Shown piece after piece: positions 1 through 6,978 of a stretch of DNA of 6,978 nt. This stretch comes from Candidatus Nanopusillus sp. (GTDB lineage: Archaea > Nanobdellota > Nanobdellia > Nanobdellales > Nanobdellaceae): the NCBI GenBank assembly GCA_046533775.1, contig JAWDOO010000015.1, positions 1 through 6,978 on the forward strand. Reading direction: 5' to 3'. The stretch's first letter is position 1. Each line of letters opens with the position of its first letter. The position numbers and the translations under genes are program-made. The notes under the pieces were generated by a model. That model was not told where the DNA came from. It worked only from the letters and a program-made list of their open reading frames with translations, and did not search any database.

Positions 1-438
1 TTTGATGGATTAGCCCTGTTTTTTCTTGGTTTATTATTTGAATATTTATATGGAAGTAAAGATCTTTTAATATTATTTTTCTTATCTGGTATTGTTGGAA
101 ATATATTCTTTTTATTTCAATATTATAATAACCCACTGATTGCTGGAATTGGATCTTCTGCTGCAATATCTGGTATATTAGGAGCATTGGGAATATTGAG
201 ACCAAAAGAGAAAGTAATAATATTTCCGATAATAATTCCAATAGATATGATATATGCAGCAATATTTTGGGTTATATTTAACTTAATTGGAGTATTTTAT
301 CCATTTATACCTTTGGGATTTTCTGCACATCTGGGTGGTACATTATTTGGATTTTTATATGGATATATATTAAAAAGATATAAAGGGAAAACATCAATAG
401 ATAATATTTTTGATAATCAAGAAACAATTTATTTATAA
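1..438 (+). CDS. Rhomboid-family intramembrane serine protease, C-terminal part (5' end outside the window)
   Basis: Frame 1 has no stop from nt 1 to the TAA at 436-438, so the track's TTG start at 187 is probably an artefact of the window edge. The translation FDGLALFFLGLLFEYLYG...GIGSSAAISGILGALG...FSAHLGGTLFGFLYG carries the rhomboid GxSx catalytic-Ser motif (Ser codon 157-159) and the AHxGG catalytic-His motif (His codon 328-330), both inside hydrophobic helices. Confidence 0.85.
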   Translation, partial: FDGLALFFLGLLFEYLYGSKDLLILFFLSGIVGNIFFLFQYYNNPLIAGIGSSAAISGILGALGILRPKEKVIIFPIIIPIDMIYAAIFWVIFNLIGVFYPFIPLGFSAHLGGTLFGFLYGYILKRYKGKTSIDNIFDNQETIYL

Positions 439-2166: not shown

Positions 2167-2173
2167 TTATAAA
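2167..2173 (-). promoter_or_regulatory. TATA-like box for the thyA-like gene, overlapping the stop codon of the upstream glycosyltransferase gene
   Basis: The minus strand reads gAAAATTTATAAga, with its core centred about 26 nt upstream of the ATG at 2144. Only 22 nt separate the two genes. Confidence 0.35.
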
Positions 2174-3729
2174 TTTTCTTTTTTATTTATTATCCCCAAA
2201 TATAGTAAATTTTTTACATTCTTTTTGCTCATTTTATAACTTCTATATTGCAAATAGAATATAAATAATATTGAAATTATCCAAATATAAATGGAAAGCT
2301 CTCCCAATGTTATGCTCATTAAAAATGGTAAAATATTATAAGAATTTATATATGGTAGCCATGATGAATATGTATAGTAAAGGAAATATATATTTATTAA
2401 TAAAAATATTATATATACGGTTATCGAATAATAATCAAAATTATATTTTCTTATTGTTTTAACAGTAACTATCCATTTGTTATCTAAACCAATTAATAAT
2501 CTTCTTAAATAATAAGATATTGTTAATGCAGAGATACCCCAACCAATTAATAATACTAAAAAAGAATCCAAAATACTTGCTTTATTATATATTCTTTTTT
2601 CAACTATGTAATATTCTGTTATAAAAATTGTTATTATATAAATTTGTGAGAAATAAAAGAATGGAGCTACATAATACCATAATGGTGATGAAAGATTGAA
2701 TAGAATAATTATTATGCTAATTAATATTAATATAAAAGAAATTAATGGTAAAAATAATGTTGAAAACATATGAATGAAACTCATCTTTTGTTTAAATTTT
2801 AAATTTTTATTAAATAATATTTTCCAGAAATTTGAAATAATTACATCAAAAGTACCTGTTTGCCATCTTCTTAATGTTTTTAGCGTCATATTAAAGTTTG
2901 GAGGTAAATTTTGTCCATATTCAATCCAATCCCTAATATATATACCCTTAAAACCATTTAAATATAATCTAATTGTTAATGAAGCATCTTCAGTTAAATG
3001 TGGTGTAAATTTTCCAGCTTTTATATAATCTTCTAATCTCAAAACTCCACAAGAACCATGCGCCATGGATATATCATCCAAAATATTTTTCATTGGCAAA
3101 TAAAATTCAAAAAACGTGTCCACATAAATTCCAACAATTTTATGAAAATAATCTACTGGAACAGTCCTTCTGTTCCAATATACAAAAGATAAATCCTTAT
3201 TTGATTCTAGAATACATACAGCTTTATATAAATATTCGATTGTAACAGTCCATTCAAAATCATATACAGAAAAATACTTTATATTATATTTTCTTTTTAA
3301 ATAATCTAATACATCATCCAAAGCAGCACCCTTTCTTTTTATACCATTTAATCTAAAATAGTATTTTACTTTATCTAGGTCATATATTAAGTATTTTTCA
3401 TCATAATATTTTTTTAAACAATTTTTTTCTAAATATTCTACCAATTTATTTTCTTTGTTTAAATCTGTATCATCCAAAAATAAAAAATATATAGTAAGAT
3501 TTTTATACACATTATTTATATTTTTCAAATATTCAATTTTTTTTATTAAAAGATCTTCTTCTTCATTTTTTACTGGAAATATTACAAATAAATTTTCTTT
3601 ATTTTTTAAATCTCTATATTTTGGAATTTTTATTTTTCTATCTATATTTATCAAATATCTTAGATCAAATATTGATATTATTAATATATCTAATAATAAT
3701 AAGATTGAAGAAATAAATAATAGATCCAT
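2167..3729 (-). CDS. Membrane-integrated family-2 glycosyltransferase, processive synthase type (cellulose/chitin/PNAG-synthase-like)
   Basis: 520-aa ORF. It has an N-terminal TM helix followed by GT2 motifs: FPVKNEE (51-57), FLDDTD (84-89), KGAALDD (133-139), VYDFEW (a DxD-position variant, 155-160), TED in HLTEDASLTIRL (codons 2986-2994) and a QxxRW-type motif reading TLRRWQTG (Trp codon 2863-2865). About 5-6 hydrophobic helices follow, from residue ~320 to ~495. Confidence 0.9.
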   Translation of the reverse strand: MDLLFISSILLLLDILIISIFDLRYLINIDRKIKIPKYRDLKNKENLFVIFPVKNEEEDLLIKKIEYLKNINNVYKNLTIYFLFLDDTDLNKENKLVEYLEKNCLKKYYDEKYLIYDLDKVKYYFRLNGIKRKGAALDDVLDYLKRKYNIKYFSVYDFEWTVTIEYLYKAVCILESNKDLSFVYWNRRTVPVDYFHKIVGIYVDTFFEFYLPMKNILDDISMAHGSCGVLRLEDYIKAGKFTPHLTEDASLTIRLYLNGFKGIYIRDWIEYGQNLPPNFNMTLKTLRRWQTGTFDVIISNFWKILFNKNLKFKQKMSFIHMFSTLFLPLISFILILISIIIILFNLSSPLWYYVAPFFYFSQIYIITIFITEYYIVEKRIYNKASILDSFLVLLIGWGISALTISYYLRRLLIGLDNKWIVTVKTIRKYNFDYYSITVYIIFLLINIYFLYYTYSSWLPYINSYNILPFLMSITLGELSIYIWIISILFIFYLQYRSYKMSKKNVKNLLYLGIINKKENL

Positions 3730-3730
3730 T

Positions 3731-4111
3731 TTAATATAATGGACTCTGTATTATAATAGGTAATAGTTGTGATGATGCCGAATATATATACATGGGACTA
3801 ATTATCAGTGAATATATAATTAATGATATTAGTAATGACGCTAAAATAATAATTGCTATAATTATTAGAGACAAATCAAATAAATAATATAGTAATATCC
3901 CTATTATAAATAATAATATTATAATAAATAAGAATATTGATTGTATCATTGATAGATCCAATAATGATACTAATAATATAAGTAACAATGATAAAATTAT
4001 TAACAAAATTATAAATACTAATGCTCCTTTTTTCAATAACTTTGATAATATGATCAATACCAATGTGAATGTATATATTTCGAATAGAATAATGAATGTT
4101 GTTAATATCAT
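3731..4111 (-). CDS. Small polytopic membrane protein (126 aa, about 4 TM helices); candidate partner of the downstream glycosyltransferase
   Basis: The ORF ends at the TAA at 3731-3733, 1 nt before the glycosyltransferase ATG (3727-3729). There are four Leu/Ile-rich hydrophobic stretches separated by short polar loops (KLLKKG, DLSMIQS). A TATA-like palindrome is centred 25-26 nt upstream of the ATG. Low-complexity composition keeps confidence moderate. Confidence 0.6.
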   Translation of the reverse strand: MILTTFIILFEIYTFTLVLIILSKLLKKGALVFIILLIILSLLLILLVSLLDLSMIQSIFLFIIILLFIIGILLYYLFDLSLIIIAIIILASLLISLIIYSLIISPMYIYSASSQLLPIIIQSPLY

Positions 4112-4129
4112 ACATATTTTTTTACAAAA

Positions 4130-4143
4130 AAATTTATAAATTT
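4130..4143 (-). promoter_or_regulatory. Perfectly palindromic TATA-like element AAATTTATAAATTT in the divergent intergenic region
   Basis: The 14-nt sequence equals its own reverse complement. Its centre is about 25.5 nt upstream of the minus-strand ATG at 4111 (leaderless geometry). It shares the core AAATTTATAA with the element upstream of the thyA-like gene. Confidence 0.45.
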
Positions 4144-4271
4144 ATTCTATACCATTACTACTATATTAAAGGCAATATATTAATTATTTTCTATAAAATG
4201 ATAATTGATAAAATGTTTTGTAAAAATTTTAGAGCAAAAACCCTTAAAAGATTTTTAAATAAGTTATTTTA

Positions 4272-4910
4272 ATGGAAGATTACATAGATTTTGAAGAAAC
4301 AGGAATATTGGGAGTTGGAGATAAAGTACCAGAATTGGTAATAAAAGTATATGATACAGTAGAAAAAAAGTTCAAAGAAATAAATATATATAAAGATGTA
4401 TTAAGTAAAGGAAAATTTTTAGTATTATTCTATTACCCAGCAGATTTTACATTTGTATGTCCAACAGAATTAGAAGATCTAGCAGAAAAATATGATGAAA
4501 TAAAGAAGGAAGGTGCAGAAGTTATTGCAATGTCAACTGATACTGTATATACACACTTAGCATGGCACGCAACAGAAAAACTATTAGAAAATGTTAAATT
4601 TCCAATGGGTGAAGATCATACAGGAACAATAGCAAAGATGTTTAATATATATGATTATAAATCTGGAGTAGCATATAGAGCAACAATAATAATTGATCCA
4701 GATGGAACTGTTGTGGGAATGGAAGTAAATAATACAGATGTAGGAAGAGATTCTGATGAACTATTGAGAAAAATAAGAGCATTTAAATATGTAAGAGAGC
4801 ATCCAGGTGAAGTATGTCCAGCAAAATGGGGTAAAGATGTAAATATAACATTAAAGCCAGGAGAAAATTTAGTAGGAAGAGTATACGAATATTATAAAAA
4901 AGGCAAATAA
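4272..4910 (+). CDS. ahpC: Typical 2-Cys peroxiredoxin (AhpC/Prx1 subfamily)
   Basis: 212-aa ORF. The peroxidatic Cys sits in FYYPADFTFVCPTEL (Cys63, codon 4458-4460). The conserved Arg is in YRATIIIDPDG. The resolving Cys sits in HPGEVCPAKW (Cys182, codon 4815-4817). The start is slightly uncertain: about 12 residues precede the usual Prx N-terminus, and an in-frame TTG at 4308 is an alternative. Confidence 0.95.
   Translation: MEDYIDFEETGILGVGDKVPELVIKVYDTVEKKFKEINIYKDVLSKGKFLVLFYYPADFTFVCPTELEDLAEKYDEIKKEGAEVIAMSTDTVYTHLAWHATEKLLENVKFPMGEDHTGTIAKMFNIYDYKSGVAYRATIIIDPDGTVVGMEVNNTDVGRDSDELLRKIRAFKYVREHPGEVCPAKWGKDVNITLKPGENLVGRVYEYYKKGK
4896..4901 (-). terminator. Oligo-T (T6 on the minus strand) 11 nt downstream of the primase stop, embedded in the peroxiredoxin 3' coding end
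   Basis: An A6 run at 4896-4901 on the + strand. The primase stop TAA is at 4912-4914 on the - strand. Confidence 0.3.
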
Positions 4911-4911
4911 A

Positions 4912-6264
4912 TTATTTATTTTTTAATAGTTCTTCAAAGAATTTATCCCTAATAGGTTCATATACCTTTTTATAAAATTCTTGTTGATCTAAGAGAACCT
5001 CCTTTGGAAATTTTTTTAAATATTCCATTGCAAAGTTCCATGCAATATCATAATCAACTATACTATTTATTTTATCCTTTATTTCTTTATCATAATCTTC
5101 TGGTGTTTGATCTTTATCTCCTATATGAAAATATCCCGTCTTTTTATTATATGGTGCTTCTTCATTTCCAACTTTTACTAATTCTATTTCTTTATCTTCT
5201 TTTTCTTTAAAATATGGATGAAATATTTTTTCTTTACTCCTTTTATATATTGGTCTATAATATTTTGCCCATGCATAGAATATTGCTCTATTTAAACCAA
5301 AGCTCTTTGCTTTATTTATATCATTATATAATATATAATATCTTGCCGCTTGTAATAATCCCATAACTTGGAATCTTCCAACATTTCCTAAATTTTCTCT
5401 TTTTATTGATATTTTCTCCTGTTTTAATGTATTTTTATTTAAATAATTTACAATATAATTTTTTGTTTCTTTTATAGATATCTCTGCTAAATAATCCCCT
5501 TCTCCAGGTTCATATTCTCTCCATTTTTCACTATGTTTAAAATTCTTATAATTTGCCCAGGATAGATCAAAATTTTGAATATCGTTTGGTTTAAATACTA
5601 TGCATACATAATCTAAAAATCTATGAAATGATAAAGGTACTGTAAATACCCTCTGTATATCTATCTTATTTTCAACTTTGAATTCTCTAGATTTTCCCTT
5701 TGCTTTTGATATCTCTTTTTCTAAATCATCTTTCGCTTTCTTTAATATAAAATCTACAATTGCGAATGCAATATTTAGTGGATGATATTTATTTAATATA
5801 TTCTCTGAAAATGCTTTTTCATTAATATGTATGTGTATTCCCCTTCCACTCCATTTTAAATATACAGATTTATATATTTTATATTTTTCCAGATATGAAA
5901 CAATTATTTCTGCAACATTTTTTATTATATCAAAATCTTCTAATGTTCCATCAATATCAAAAATTGGCGTTACATATTTTATATTATTTATATCTTTTAA
6001 TTTGTCTTCAGAAATTTGATTATATATATTTATTGTCGCATAAATTGTTCGAAATTTCAAATAAGAAAATTTTGTAAATAAAGACTTGTATTCATCTTCA
6101 TTTTCAATTTTTAATGGTTTTTTATCTTTATCATATCTTATAAATATTCTTTGATCCAATCTATTTGTTTCTAAAGCGATCCATCTATTTTTTGAATAAT
6201 CAATAATCTCTTTTATAACATATTCATTCATGTAATAATTTTTTATTTCGAACCATTCTATCAT
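4912..6264 (-). CDS. priS: Archaeo-eukaryotic primase (PriS-like catalytic domain) with a C-terminal helical extension; possible fused PriS-PriL-type minimal primase
   Basis: 450-aa ORF. AEP motif I is PIFDIDG (D103/D105, codons 5950-5958). Motif II is KWSGRGIHIHI (5833-5850). Motif III is KIDIQRVFTVPLSFH (D202, codon 5659-5661). The whole protein has one cysteine (C221), so there is no Zn-knuckle and no 4-Cys Fe-S site. Residues ~290-450 are helical, Tyr/Lys-rich and not part of the catalytic fold. Confidence 0.85.
   Translation of the reverse strand: MIEWFEIKNYYMNEYVIKEIIDYSKNRWIALETNRLDQRIFIRYDKDKKPLKIENEDEYKSLFTKFSYLKFRTIYATINIYNQISEDKLKDINNIKYVTPIFDIDGTLEDFDIIKNVAEIIVSYLEKYKIYKSVYLKWSGRGIHIHINEKAFSENILNKYHPLNIAFAIVDFILKKAKDDLEKEISKAKGKSREFKVENKIDIQRVFTVPLSFHRFLDYVCIVFKPNDIQNFDLSWANYKNFKHSEKWREYEPGEGDYLAEISIKETKNYIVNYLNKNTLKQEKISIKRENLGNVGRFQVMGLLQAARYYILYNDINKAKSFGLNRAIFYAWAKYYRPIYKRSKEKIFHPYFKEKEDKEIELVKVGNEEAPYNKKTGYFHIGDKDQTPEDYDKEIKDKINSIVDYDIAWNFAMEYLKKFPKEVLLDQQEFYKKVYEPIRDKFFEELLKNK
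4919..4924 (+). terminator. Oligo-T (T6) 9 nt downstream of the peroxiredoxin stop, embedded in the primase 3' coding end
   Basis: TAA at 4908-4910 is followed by attatttaTTTTTT, with the T6 at 4919-4924. Confidence 0.3.
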
Positions 6265-6285
6265 AATAATCTAATAATGTTTTGA

Positions 6286-6297
6286 TAATATATATTT
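6286..6297 (-). promoter_or_regulatory. TATA-like box for the primase gene (leaderless geometry)
   Basis: The minus strand reads ttAAAATATATATTAT, centred about 27 nt upstream of the ATG at 6264. No SD-like element intervenes. Confidence 0.4.
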
Positions 6298-6366
6298 TAA
6301 TTTTTTATAATTAGGATGTTATATTGAAAATGATCAAAATATTTATTAAAAATATTGTTAGTTAGA

Positions 6367-6978
6367 TTATGTGTACATTGAGCCTTTTCCATTTATTGTA
6401 AGTGACCCATTATTAATTGTTACAGAACTTTGTCCATTAATATTTAATGTTCCATTGTTATTTTCTATTGTCATGGAACCCTGTCCATTTATATTTATTG
6501 TTTCATTATTAATTTCTATTGTAATAGAGTTCTGATTATTTATATTTGTTTGATTATTTTCTATGGAAATCTGCCAATTTGTATTATTCCAGTTCCAATT
6601 GTTCCAATTCCAATTTTCTATCCAATTCTTTATTTCTCTTCTAAAGTGTTTCATATGCTCCCCAATAATTTCTTCTTCATAATTTTCTCCCATACTTCTT
6701 ATTACTTCCCAATTATAATCTTCTAATTGATATATCATATTCAATAGTGTAGATATATTTTCATTCATAACTTCTTGTATTATTGGTGTTAATGTTTGAT
6801 TTAACTCTGGTAATATATTACATATGAATAATGAATTATTTGTATAATTACACAATACTTCAAACTTATCTAATAATAAGGGTAAATGTTCTAATAATCT
6901 ATTAATACGTTTTTCTAAAAGTTGAGTTATATTTAATTCTCCATTTCTATTCATTTTATAATCATTTTCAATTTCTTG
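6367..6978 (-). CDS. Asn/Trp-rich tandem-repeat protein of unknown function; the N-terminus may lie outside the window
   Basis: The track gives 6367-6954 (195 aa). However, the frame has no stop upstream of the ATG at 6954 through nt 6978 (it reads QEIENDYK-MNRNG...), so the true start is undetermined. The architecture is a helical region, then a WIENWNWNNWNWNNTNW cluster, then about 3.5 copies of a 17-aa unit (consensus hTIENNxGTLNINGQGS), ending in MYT. Confidence 0.7.
   Translation of the reverse strand, partial: QEIENDYKMNRNGELNITQLLEKRINRLLEHLPLLLDKFEVLCNYTNNSLFICNILPELNQTLTPIIQEVMNENISTLLNMIYQLEDYNWEVIRSMGENYEEEIIGEHMKHFRREIKNWIENWNWNNWNWNNTNWQISIENNQTNINNQNSITIEINNETININGQGSMTIENNNGTLNINGQSSVTINNGSLTINGKGSMYT
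6379..6573 (-). repeat. Coding tandem repeat with a 51-nt (17-codon) unit, about 3.5-4 degenerate copies
   Basis: The units are 6526-6573 (QISIENNQTNINNQNS), 6475-6525 (ITIEINNETININGQGS), 6424-6474 (MTIENNNGTLNINGQSS) and 6379-6423 (VTINNGSLTINGKGS, which has a 2-codon deletion). The two central units align nucleotide for nucleotide at most positions by eye. Confidence 0.8.
6574..6624 (-). repeat. Short ccaatt/ccagtt-type microrepeat encoding a Trp/Asn cluster (6 Trp in 17 residues)
   Basis: The + strand reads ccaatttgtattattccagttccaattgttccaattccaattttctatcca, encoding WIENWNWNNWNWNNTNW (aa 111-127). Confidence 0.6.

Follow-up and report, generated by a model that had tools for sequence, protein, structure and literature searches.

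A diverged, truncated member of an uncharacterised Nanopusillaceae CWB2-family protein with a strain-variable tail at the end of a Candidatus Nanopusillus contig

In our study, contig JAWDOO010000015.1 of Candidatus Nanopusillus sp. was analysed over its whole length of 6978 bp (hereafter the window; G+C about 21–22%). A minus-strand frame at 6367–6978 was found to run for 203 codons without a stop to the window edge, with its stop codon at 6367–6369 and an ATG at 6954. An earlier reading of this DNA (the original prediction) had described it as an orphan protein with a helical domain, a Trp cluster and 17-residue repeats. We found that the frame is the last 203 residues, or the C-terminal 45%, of a protein of roughly 450 residues. 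Judged from the aligned orthologs, the window contains the predicted helical domain and the tail only, and about 247 residues lie off the contig. The object is securely identified as a new, unusually diverged allele of a catalogued, unstudied CWB2-family protein of the Nanopusillaceae, and we infer its function below. The features of the target gene and of the DNA that follows it are given here.

6625–6978, minus strand: helical domain, amino acids 1–118 of the fragment, equal to residues of about 248–365 of the full-length orthologs; the N-terminal side is cut by the contig end.
6574–6624, minus strand: Trp cluster W-IEN-W-N-W-NN-W-N-W-NNTN-W, amino acids 119–135; an optional module.
6379–6573, minus strand: Asn/Gly-rich repeat array, amino acids 136–200, consisting of Q followed by ISIENNQTNINNQNS / ITIEINNETININGQGS / MTIENNNGTLNINGQSS / VTINNGSLTINGKGS.
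6367–6378, minus strand: C-terminal MYT and stop codon, from the translation and the family comparison of endings.
6265–6366, minus strand: intergenic spacer, separating the target from the primase-like gene that follows it, where high identity to N. acidilobi-type strains resumes.
4912–6264, minus strand: primase small-subunit-like neighbour of 450 amino acids, ortholog of Nps_01015, with 92.9% amino acid identity to positions 9305–10654 of the N. acidilobi locus (L002).

The fragment aligned from residue 248 of the full-length orthologs, and the proposed continuation of the open reading frame (ORF) past the window edge was thereby confirmed. The ATG at 6954 is not the start; ortholog alignment placed it inside the gene, and the peptide QEIENDYKM encoded 5' of it is conserved in orthologs. 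When an extension of the contig was sought, the exact protein was not on record, and the 23 metagenome relatives contained none that was more than 72% identical and no overlapping contig. Scans for Rfam families and for tRNAs gave no matches in the window. A word-indexed protein search with the window fragment returned a single relative (P0002). A composite query built from both frames of P0002 retrieved 58 homologous clusters; since it recovered the whole family, the first near-null result reflects a limit of the tool. A protein search with the tail alone gave no matches despite the identical 17-mers present in P0028 and P0032, and this null is uninformative. Such nulls of word-indexed searches on low-complexity, AT-biased proteins are no basis for the term orphan. 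The orphan reading was rejected because 58 homologous clusters exist, and in place of "no family" stands a Nanoarchaeota family whose orthologs carry an N-terminal triad of CWB2 (PF04122) units.

The family members range in length from 375 to 436 amino acids and include N. acidilobi Nps_01020 (P0026, 408 amino acids), the "cell wall binding protein" of Nanobdella aerobiophila, YN1_5710 and a Nanoclepta minutus protein. The family, conserved in ectosymbiotic archaea of the Nanopusillus type, was seen only in thermophilic Nanoarchaeota. The species-representative genomes with a member were those of Nanopusillus, Nanobsidianus and other Nanopusillaceae, of Nanobdella, YN1 and Nanoclepta, and two more DPANN metagenome-assembled genomes (MAGs); outside these, the CWB2 part alone matched, in Firmicutes. 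The gene order in CP010514 (N. acidilobi) was Hef, DHH, Nps_01020, the primase-like Nps_01015, peroxiredoxin (Prx), ThyA and a 79-amino-acid gene. The window was collinear with this order on the downstream side (primase-like, Prx, ThyA and 79-amino-acid genes), the upstream side being off the contig. The flanking DNA was 93% identical to CP010514 and the neighbouring proteins were 91–95% identical at the amino acid level. By blastn, window 4187–6300 matched L002 with 93% identity, and window 6265–6300 matched L019 and L022 with 100% identity. From the collinear order and the identity of the neighbours, the target was therefore assigned as the ortholog of Candidatus Nanopusillus acidilobi Nps_01020, in a strain about 93% identical in flanking DNA.

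The Nps_01020 orthologs (N. acidilobi, Nanobsidianus stetteri, Nanopusillus MAGs, Nanobdella aerobiophila and YN1) share with the target the helical domain with an invariant C-x9-C loop and an invariant Trp; further matches are the ISIxNNQTN and Asn/Gly units as well as the Trp cluster. The amino acid identity in this half of the protein was 64–75%, in contrast to 91–95% for the neighbouring genes. All of these orthologs lack experimental characterisation. No NCBIfam model matched the target, any of its orthologs or the primase-like neighbour, and literature searches that paired Nanopusillus with "cell wall binding", and CWB2 with Nanoarchaeota or archaea, brought up no work on the family. The Nanobdella surface-protein survey was limited, by its own statement, to proteins with signal peptides; the published surveys of Nanoarchaeota surfaces being restricted in this way, the family was never examined.

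PF04122 matched 57 of the 58 aligned sequences (best E = 1.9e-12), the sole exception being the window fragment, so that the family assignment applies to the orthogroup and the fragment itself covers only residues from about 248. The closest full-length ortholog, P0032, scored 32.8 bits against the Pfam gathering score of 24.9, and the family profile matched C. difficile Cwp6 (5j72) with E = 1.2e-14. The AlphaFold model of P0032 had a predicted local distance difference test score (pLDDT) of 81 and a predicted template modelling score (pTM) of 0.81. Residues 1–232 were modelled as an alpha/beta region with pLDDT mostly 85–96 (about 70–85 from residue ~190), followed by helices of high confidence at 239–368 and long strands at 371–424 with pLDDT <50. 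Foldseek searches with this model returned Cwp6 (5j72), Cwp8 (5j6q) and SlpA-HMW (7acz/7acx) of C. difficile with probability 1.0 and E = 1.5e-5 to 3e-4 over 270–300 aligned columns. On the profile and the model, the N-terminal ~230 residues of the orthologs are assigned as a CWB2 pseudo-trimer of three tandem units, the third of which is shortened in the P0032 model. The ortholog architecture is without a signal peptide and consists of the CWB2 triad, a lineage-restricted helical domain of about 120 residues and a strain-variable, modular C-terminal tail.

The C. difficile proteins Cwp6 (5J72), Cwp8 (5J6Q) and SlpA HMW (7ACX/7ACZ) correspond to the N-terminal ~230 residues of the orthologs and are likewise modular, with an anchoring triad and a variable "functional" region. 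Strain-variable surface cassettes are typical of SlpA as well. In contrast to these proteins, the family occurs in an archaeon without peptidoglycan and without a PSII-type polymer, and its Nanopusillaceae members have no signal peptide, a shortened third repeat and a heavy enrichment of sequons. The part present in the window, namely the helical domain and the tail, has no counterpart in bacterial CWB2 proteins.

The helical domain matched its family profile with E = 1.7e-41. R27, C43 (nt 6850–6852), C53 (nt 6820–6822) and W90 of the fragment were invariant in alignments A1 and A3, and four sequons conserved in the family (NIT16, NYT44, NQT60 and NIS74) lie in this domain. In the AlphaFold model of the fragment, helices were found at amino acids 17–122 with pLDDT 79–94 over most of the stretch. 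The domain profile matched only five representatives among 1.84 billion proteins, all of them of this family, and a Foldseek comparison of the fragment model with the PDB revealed no known structural relative of the domain (best E = 0.8). The model having no PDB relative, the domain is structurally novel but lineage-restricted. The Pfam hits to Spore_III_AF (E = 0.0013) and DUF7239 (E = 0.011) on the fragment were below the cut-off and not common to family members, and they were rejected. Proteins of Nanoclepta minutus and related Nanoarchaeota (P0050, P0051, P0058 and P0061) contain the CWB2 triad together with the same helical domain, including a C-x(9-10)-C loop and the Trp (P0050 against the domain profile, E = 6e-27; P0061, E = 3e-5). 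Three of them (P0050, P0051 and P0058) are also sequon-rich, with 18–22 each. The four proteins differ from the target in being only 19–40% identical, in their cleavable-looking signal peptides and in their tails, which are Cys-rich (CxxxxC...PCDVPxGW) and not made of Asn/Gly repeats.

The Trp cluster of the original prediction was confirmed, with six W in 17 residues (amino acids 119–135, nt 6574–6624) in addition to W90. The 17-residue repeat was likewise real. TRF detected a 51-nt period with 2.1–2.6 copies and 77–82% matches at 6416–6547; at the protein level there were four Asn/Gly units of 15/17/17/15 amino acids (amino acids 137–200), followed by MYT. The self-identity at lag 17 was 26; when the residues were shuffled 5000 times, it was 6.8 +/- 2.3 and never exceeded 17. 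Repeat units 2 and 3 were identical at 12/17 amino acids and 41/51 nt. Each 17-mer divides into a 9-residue and an 8-residue half-unit of the pattern N-[GN]-x-G-[ST]-h-[TN]-I-x, which reads as a short amphipathic strand with an Asn/Gly turn after it. In the family, the tail was found to be built of interchangeable modules: a Trp cluster or an acidic linker, 0 to ~4 repeat units, and one of four endings (MYT/MYP, INII/INIV, GGYGGYGGYT or RSPIP). The expected difference in repeat copy number among related strains was therefore found, from 0 to about 4 units among the orthologs. Besides N. acidilobi Nps_01020, about 13 other clusters had the Trp cluster, whereas P0032, P0028, L006 and L007 lacked it; many orthologs contained the acidic linker in its place. 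The 17-mer MTIENNNGTLNINGQGS was identical in P0028, P0032, L006 and L007, the genes of which are only about 60–70% identical overall, and the window copy was one residue off (QSS for QGS). The window tail was the longest, with 85 amino acids after the helical domain; none of the close protein clusters in the comparison had more than 69. About four units were likewise present in the metagenome relatives L006 and L007; a full Trp cluster joined to ~4 units was found in the window alone among the sequences retrieved.

For the fold of the repeats, the original prediction had proposed a beta-solenoid. The 17-residue period supports it; the tail strands, which were hairpin-like with pLDDT <50 in both AlphaFold runs (fragment and P0032), count against it by the standard that the prediction itself had set, in which disorder in place of a repeat fold speaks against a solenoid. 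DSSP on both models gave strands, short or long, in register with the half-units. No Pfam family matched the tail at threshold (best DUF7239, E = 0.002, 18.8 bits against a cut-off of 24.6), and Pfam gave no match to bactofilin, HemolysinCabind, Beta_helix or adhesin families. The tail profile matched PDB sequences only in a spurious 18-residue stretch of a ParM fusion protein. The suggested bactofilin or ice-binding relatives accordingly found no support, with neither Pfam nor the PDB giving a match at threshold. Below threshold, PF21930 (a beta-helical trimerisation domain) matched the L006 tail (E = 0.0097) and DUF2345 the P0028/L008 tail (E = 0.099), and Foldseek of the low-confidence fragment model returned phage spikes and single-layer beta-sheets (E about 2.6–5). 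The triple-stranded beta-helix of phage and secretion-system spikes (PF21930, DUF2345/VgrG C-terminus; PDB 3PQI, 4S37) is similar in its short, ~8-residue strand-turn repeats with Gly; these matches are all sub-threshold, on low-complexity sequence or on a low-confidence model, and they are a lead and not a classification. We infer that long hairpins of low confidence in a monomer model would be expected for intertwined folds of the spike type. The prediction was of a monomer from a shallow, gappy alignment and is insensitive to a fold that needs an oligomer or a ligand. The candidate architectures of the tail are disorder, an intermolecular beta-helix and a monomeric roll or solenoid.

The fragment contained ten sequons, all at the motifs listed in the original prediction, whereas shuffled sequences contained 4.7 +/- 1.8 (P = 0.005). 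Full-length members contained 18–22, compared with 3–8 expected, and 0/2000 shuffles reached the observed count. The enrichment over composition was 2–5 times, and five neighbouring cytoplasmic proteins were not enriched. The Asn of sequons was conserved at 0.73–0.76 versus 0.32–0.34 for other Asn among members that are 48–64% identical. A second Cys pair, C198/C227 (P0032 numbering), was nearly invariant beside the invariant C43/C53. Typical signal peptides together with Cys-rich tails were found in the outgroup proteins P0050, P0051, P0058 and P0061. The surface of N. acidilobi binds wheat germ agglutinin, which indicates surface N-acetylglucosamine and a glycosylated surface (PMC4935971). 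A glycosylated, surface-type protein, as first suggested, is the best reading of these data, the sequons exceeding what AT and Asn bias would give and being preferentially conserved.

We examined the substitutions between the window and N. acidilobi. In the helical domain (73% identical amino acids), the nonsynonymous divergence (dN) was 0.148, the synonymous divergence (dS) 0.27 and dN/dS 0.54, whereas the neighbouring genes had dN of 0.02–0.04, dS of 0.22–0.31 and dN/dS of 0.07–0.20. The dS of the helical domain falls within the range of the neighbours, and the difference therefore sits in dN, which was about 5 times higher. The dN/dS of the tail was 0.16, from 43 aligned codons only. The high nucleotide identity resumed in the spacer past the stop codon. 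Among 41 close relatives, the mean pairwise identity was 88% in the CWB2 triad and 83% in the helical domain; the helical domain of the window was at most 75% identical to that of any of them and carried 16 substitutions at sites of 90% conservation or more, two of which are L65P and, within the Cys loop, P51F. The pattern agrees with the higher density of non-synonymous single-nucleotide polymorphisms in putative surface proteins of Yellowstone Nanoarchaeota (PMC6142677).

Two orthologs appear to be interrupted. The ortholog at L001 3900–5026 (JGI Ga0080007_1072392) is split by an apparent frameshift near L001 4110–4124, with a CWB2-repeat-like upstream part, and was called only from an internal GTG (P0002, 241 amino acids); the 91%-identical P0003 is intact. 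The split is either a sequencing error or a pseudogene. The ortholog in L020 (Ga0074075_14729, match 1477–2000) stops early after the helical domain (362 amino acids, ...HFKKK*) and is possibly broken or tail-less.

The surroundings of the gene differed among genera. The spacing of 24 nt after the DHH gene was conserved in L001, L002 and L003, and the order Hef-DHH-X (X being the family gene) was common to Nanopusillus, Nanobdella and YN1; in Nanoclepta, DHH and Hef are not adjacent. In Nanobdella, YN1 and Nanoclepta, a phosphogluco/mannomutase (PGM/PMM) gene and archaellum genes adjoin the family gene, which speaks for a place of the protein outside the membrane. The CWB2 gene is followed in Nanobdella and YN1 by a conserved 72-amino-acid ORF (L003 7257–7475, L004 7365–7583) and PGM/PMM, and in Nanoclepta (L005 7450–8824) by two unannotated ORFs of 299 and 139 amino acids and PGM/PMM, with archaellum genes nearby. 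The link between CWB2 and PGM/PMM is older than the primase adjacency of Nanopusillus. A functional link of the target to the primase-like gene was rejected, the adjacency being limited to Nanopusillus. Nps_01015 has been described as a primase small-subunit homolog fused to a helix-turn-helix (HTH) domain (Wurch et al., 2016, Supplementary Data 1). The 450-amino-acid neighbour in the window (4912–6264, minus strand) matched the Pfam primase domain with E = 0.024 only and no NCBIfam family, and is a very divergent primase-like protein.

Further along the window, a stretch of about 1.8 kb (2358–4186) was without a counterpart in CP010514. It contains most of a family-2 glycosyltransferase (GT2) gene (2167–3729) and the gene of a 126-amino-acid membrane protein (3731–4111), the ORF of which is very hydrophobic. 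Its flanks align at 93%, and in N. acidilobi the GT2 gene is reduced to its final 47 codons (L002 11501–11641). A glycosylation gene that lies two genes away from the sequon-rich target is thus affected by an indel at the strain level. An 83-amino-acid ORF at 187–438 (plus strand) matched the rhomboid protease domain (PF01694, E = 7e-7), but over no more than the C-terminal part of that domain; a 94%-identical stretch without a called gene is present at L002 13376–13624, and the true start may precede the listed TTG or the ORF may be truncated.

Taken together, we propose that the target is an envelope-associated glycoprotein with a variable, possibly host-facing tail, to which we give a probability of roughly 60%. 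As a component of the cell envelope, the protein would be N-glycosylated and stabilised by disulfides. Its CWB2 triad would hold it non-covalently to a glycan-bearing envelope component, either the cell's own glycosylated surface layer (S-layer) or lipids, or possibly host surface glycans, and the helical domain would then act as a stalk. The tail would consist of an aromatic Trp patch followed by amphipathic strand-turn units of 8–9 residues, which probably gain order only when they self-associate or bind. As the exposed, fast-diversifying end of the protein, the tail would vary by gain and loss of 51-nt units and by module swapping, and would so be a candidate strain- or host-specific interaction surface.

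Several observations weigh against this proposal. A signal or anchor sequence had been suggested as possible just beyond the window; instead, all 30 of the 30 Nanopusillaceae loci contained an in-frame stop 0–10 codons before the MVTAIL... start, and no hydrophobic N-terminus was present. No transmembrane segment was found in the Nanopusillaceae members either, the top Kyte-Doolittle window of 19 residues being at most 1.64 and located in a buried strand. With neither a signal peptide nor a transmembrane segment, no route to the surface is apparent, and the chief difficulty is that the sequon and Cys signals conflict with the lack of an export signal. The published proteome table of N. acidilobi (Wurch et al., 2016, Supplementary Data 1) has no abundance values for Nps_01020. 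In this strain, the N-terminal 247 residues lie beyond the contig end. In the fragment model, pLDDT was <50 over amino acids 128–203, with short strands at 151–156, 159–164, 169–173 and 176–180. Some intact orthologs (375-amino-acid forms with the RSPIP ending) are without the tail, and the tail is therefore dispensable. Relaxed constraint is inseparable from positive selection at a dN/dS <1, and with the tail-less intact orthologs and the broken alleles (L001 and L020) it is possible. We also know of no cell-wall polymer in Nanoarchaeota of the type that CWB2 binds in Clostridioides, and of no ligand.

The missing export signal gives room for an unlikely alternative, in which the protein became cytoplasmic in the Nanopusillaceae after loss of the signal peptide, acts at the inner membrane face or in DNA transactions, and retains its sequons and tail as relics. 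The absence of signal peptides and transmembrane segments from all Nanopusillaceae members fits this, as do the 24-nt spacing after the DHH gene kept in L001, L002 and L003, and the Hef-DHH-X order kept in Nanopusillus, Nanobdella and YN1, with the gene sitting in a string of Hef, DHH phosphoesterase, X and the primase-like gene. Usenik and co-workers reportedly found in 2017 that the CWB2 fold is toprim-like. Relics would not be expected to have sequon Asn conserved more than two times better than other Asn in the signal-less clade itself, or to keep two conserved Cys pairs. The primase adjacency is limited to Nanopusillus, the Nanoclepta gene adjoins PGM/PMM and archaellum genes and not DHH or Hef, and all solved CWB2 matches found here (C. 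difficile Cwp6, Cwp8 and SlpA) are surface proteins. The published annotation of Nps_01020 (Wurch et al., 2016, Supplementary Data 1), which places it in arCOG00395 (category K) as a "predicted membrane-associated transcriptional regulator", agrees with the cytoplasmic alternative. Among the 58 members, no HTH or other DNA-binding family was found in the Pfam matches, no membrane segment was present in the Nanopusillaceae members, and the arCOG00395-type regulator label is unsupported.

The tail itself may be read in two other ways. One, which we regard as improbable, takes the Trp cluster and the Asn/Gly repeats for low-complexity sequence without a function, which replication slippage and recombination generated in a genome of 22% G+C; the divergence would reflect relaxed constraint in a gene decaying in this strain and not adaptive diversification. 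The low pLDDT (<50) of the tail, the intact 375-amino-acid orthologs entirely without it, the 51-nt units with up to 80% nucleotide identity, which favour slippage, a dN/dS of 0.54 and not >1, the 16 substitutions at otherwise conserved positions (P51F and L65P among them) and the broken orthologs (the L001 frameshift and the L020 truncation) agree with it. Such decay is contradicted by the 203 codons that stay open in DNA of ~21% G+C, by the strict strand-turn pattern and the near identity of the 17-mer MTIENNNGTLNINGQGS across genes that are ~60–70% identical, by the dN/dS of 0.16 in the aligned tail codons (43 only), and by the invariant R27, C43, C53 and W90, which are kept. The other, quite improbable, is the picture drawn by the original prediction: the surface protein would be an orphan, with its signal or anchor past the window, and its C-terminal third would fold as a monomeric beta-solenoid or beta-roll of the adhesin, ice-binding or bactofilin kind. 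Its 17-residue period is real, the half-unit Gly/Asn turns and i/i+2 hydrophobics are compatible with a two-sheet roll of ~17–18 residues per coil, and the DSSP strands are in register with the half-units in both models; the half-unit Gly and hydrophobic positions presumably also resemble the RTX nonapeptide. The protein is not an orphan, however, and none of the 30 orthologous loci has an upstream signal or anchor; both predictions have pLDDT <50 and strands that form hairpins and not coils, Pfam matches are sub-threshold only, no PDB sequence or fold matched, and there would be ~4 coils at most and zero in some orthologs.

The envelope-associated glycoprotein may be extended to a very improbable but more specific proposal, in which the Nanopusillaceae would export a heavily N-glycosylated, disulfide-bonded CWB2 protein without a signal peptide by a non-classical route, and its hypervariable C-terminus (the Trp patch and the 8–9-residue strand-turn repeats) would form intermolecular beta structure, a trimeric beta-helix or a cross-beta spine, as a strain-specific determinant of host recognition or attachment in the Nanopusillus-Acidilobus symbiosis. 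We know of no molecular determinant of host attachment or specificity in Nanoarchaeota.

The result is mainly corrective, as the ORF is neither an orphan nor a new system but a truncated member of a catalogued, uncharacterised family. The family also poses a puzzle, namely the presence of a bacterial-type wall-anchoring module in wall-less organisms and, in this clade, without an export signal. The ~5-fold dN over the neighbouring genes, the kept sequons and the tail of variable copy number make the protein a reasonable candidate for strain-level surface variation.

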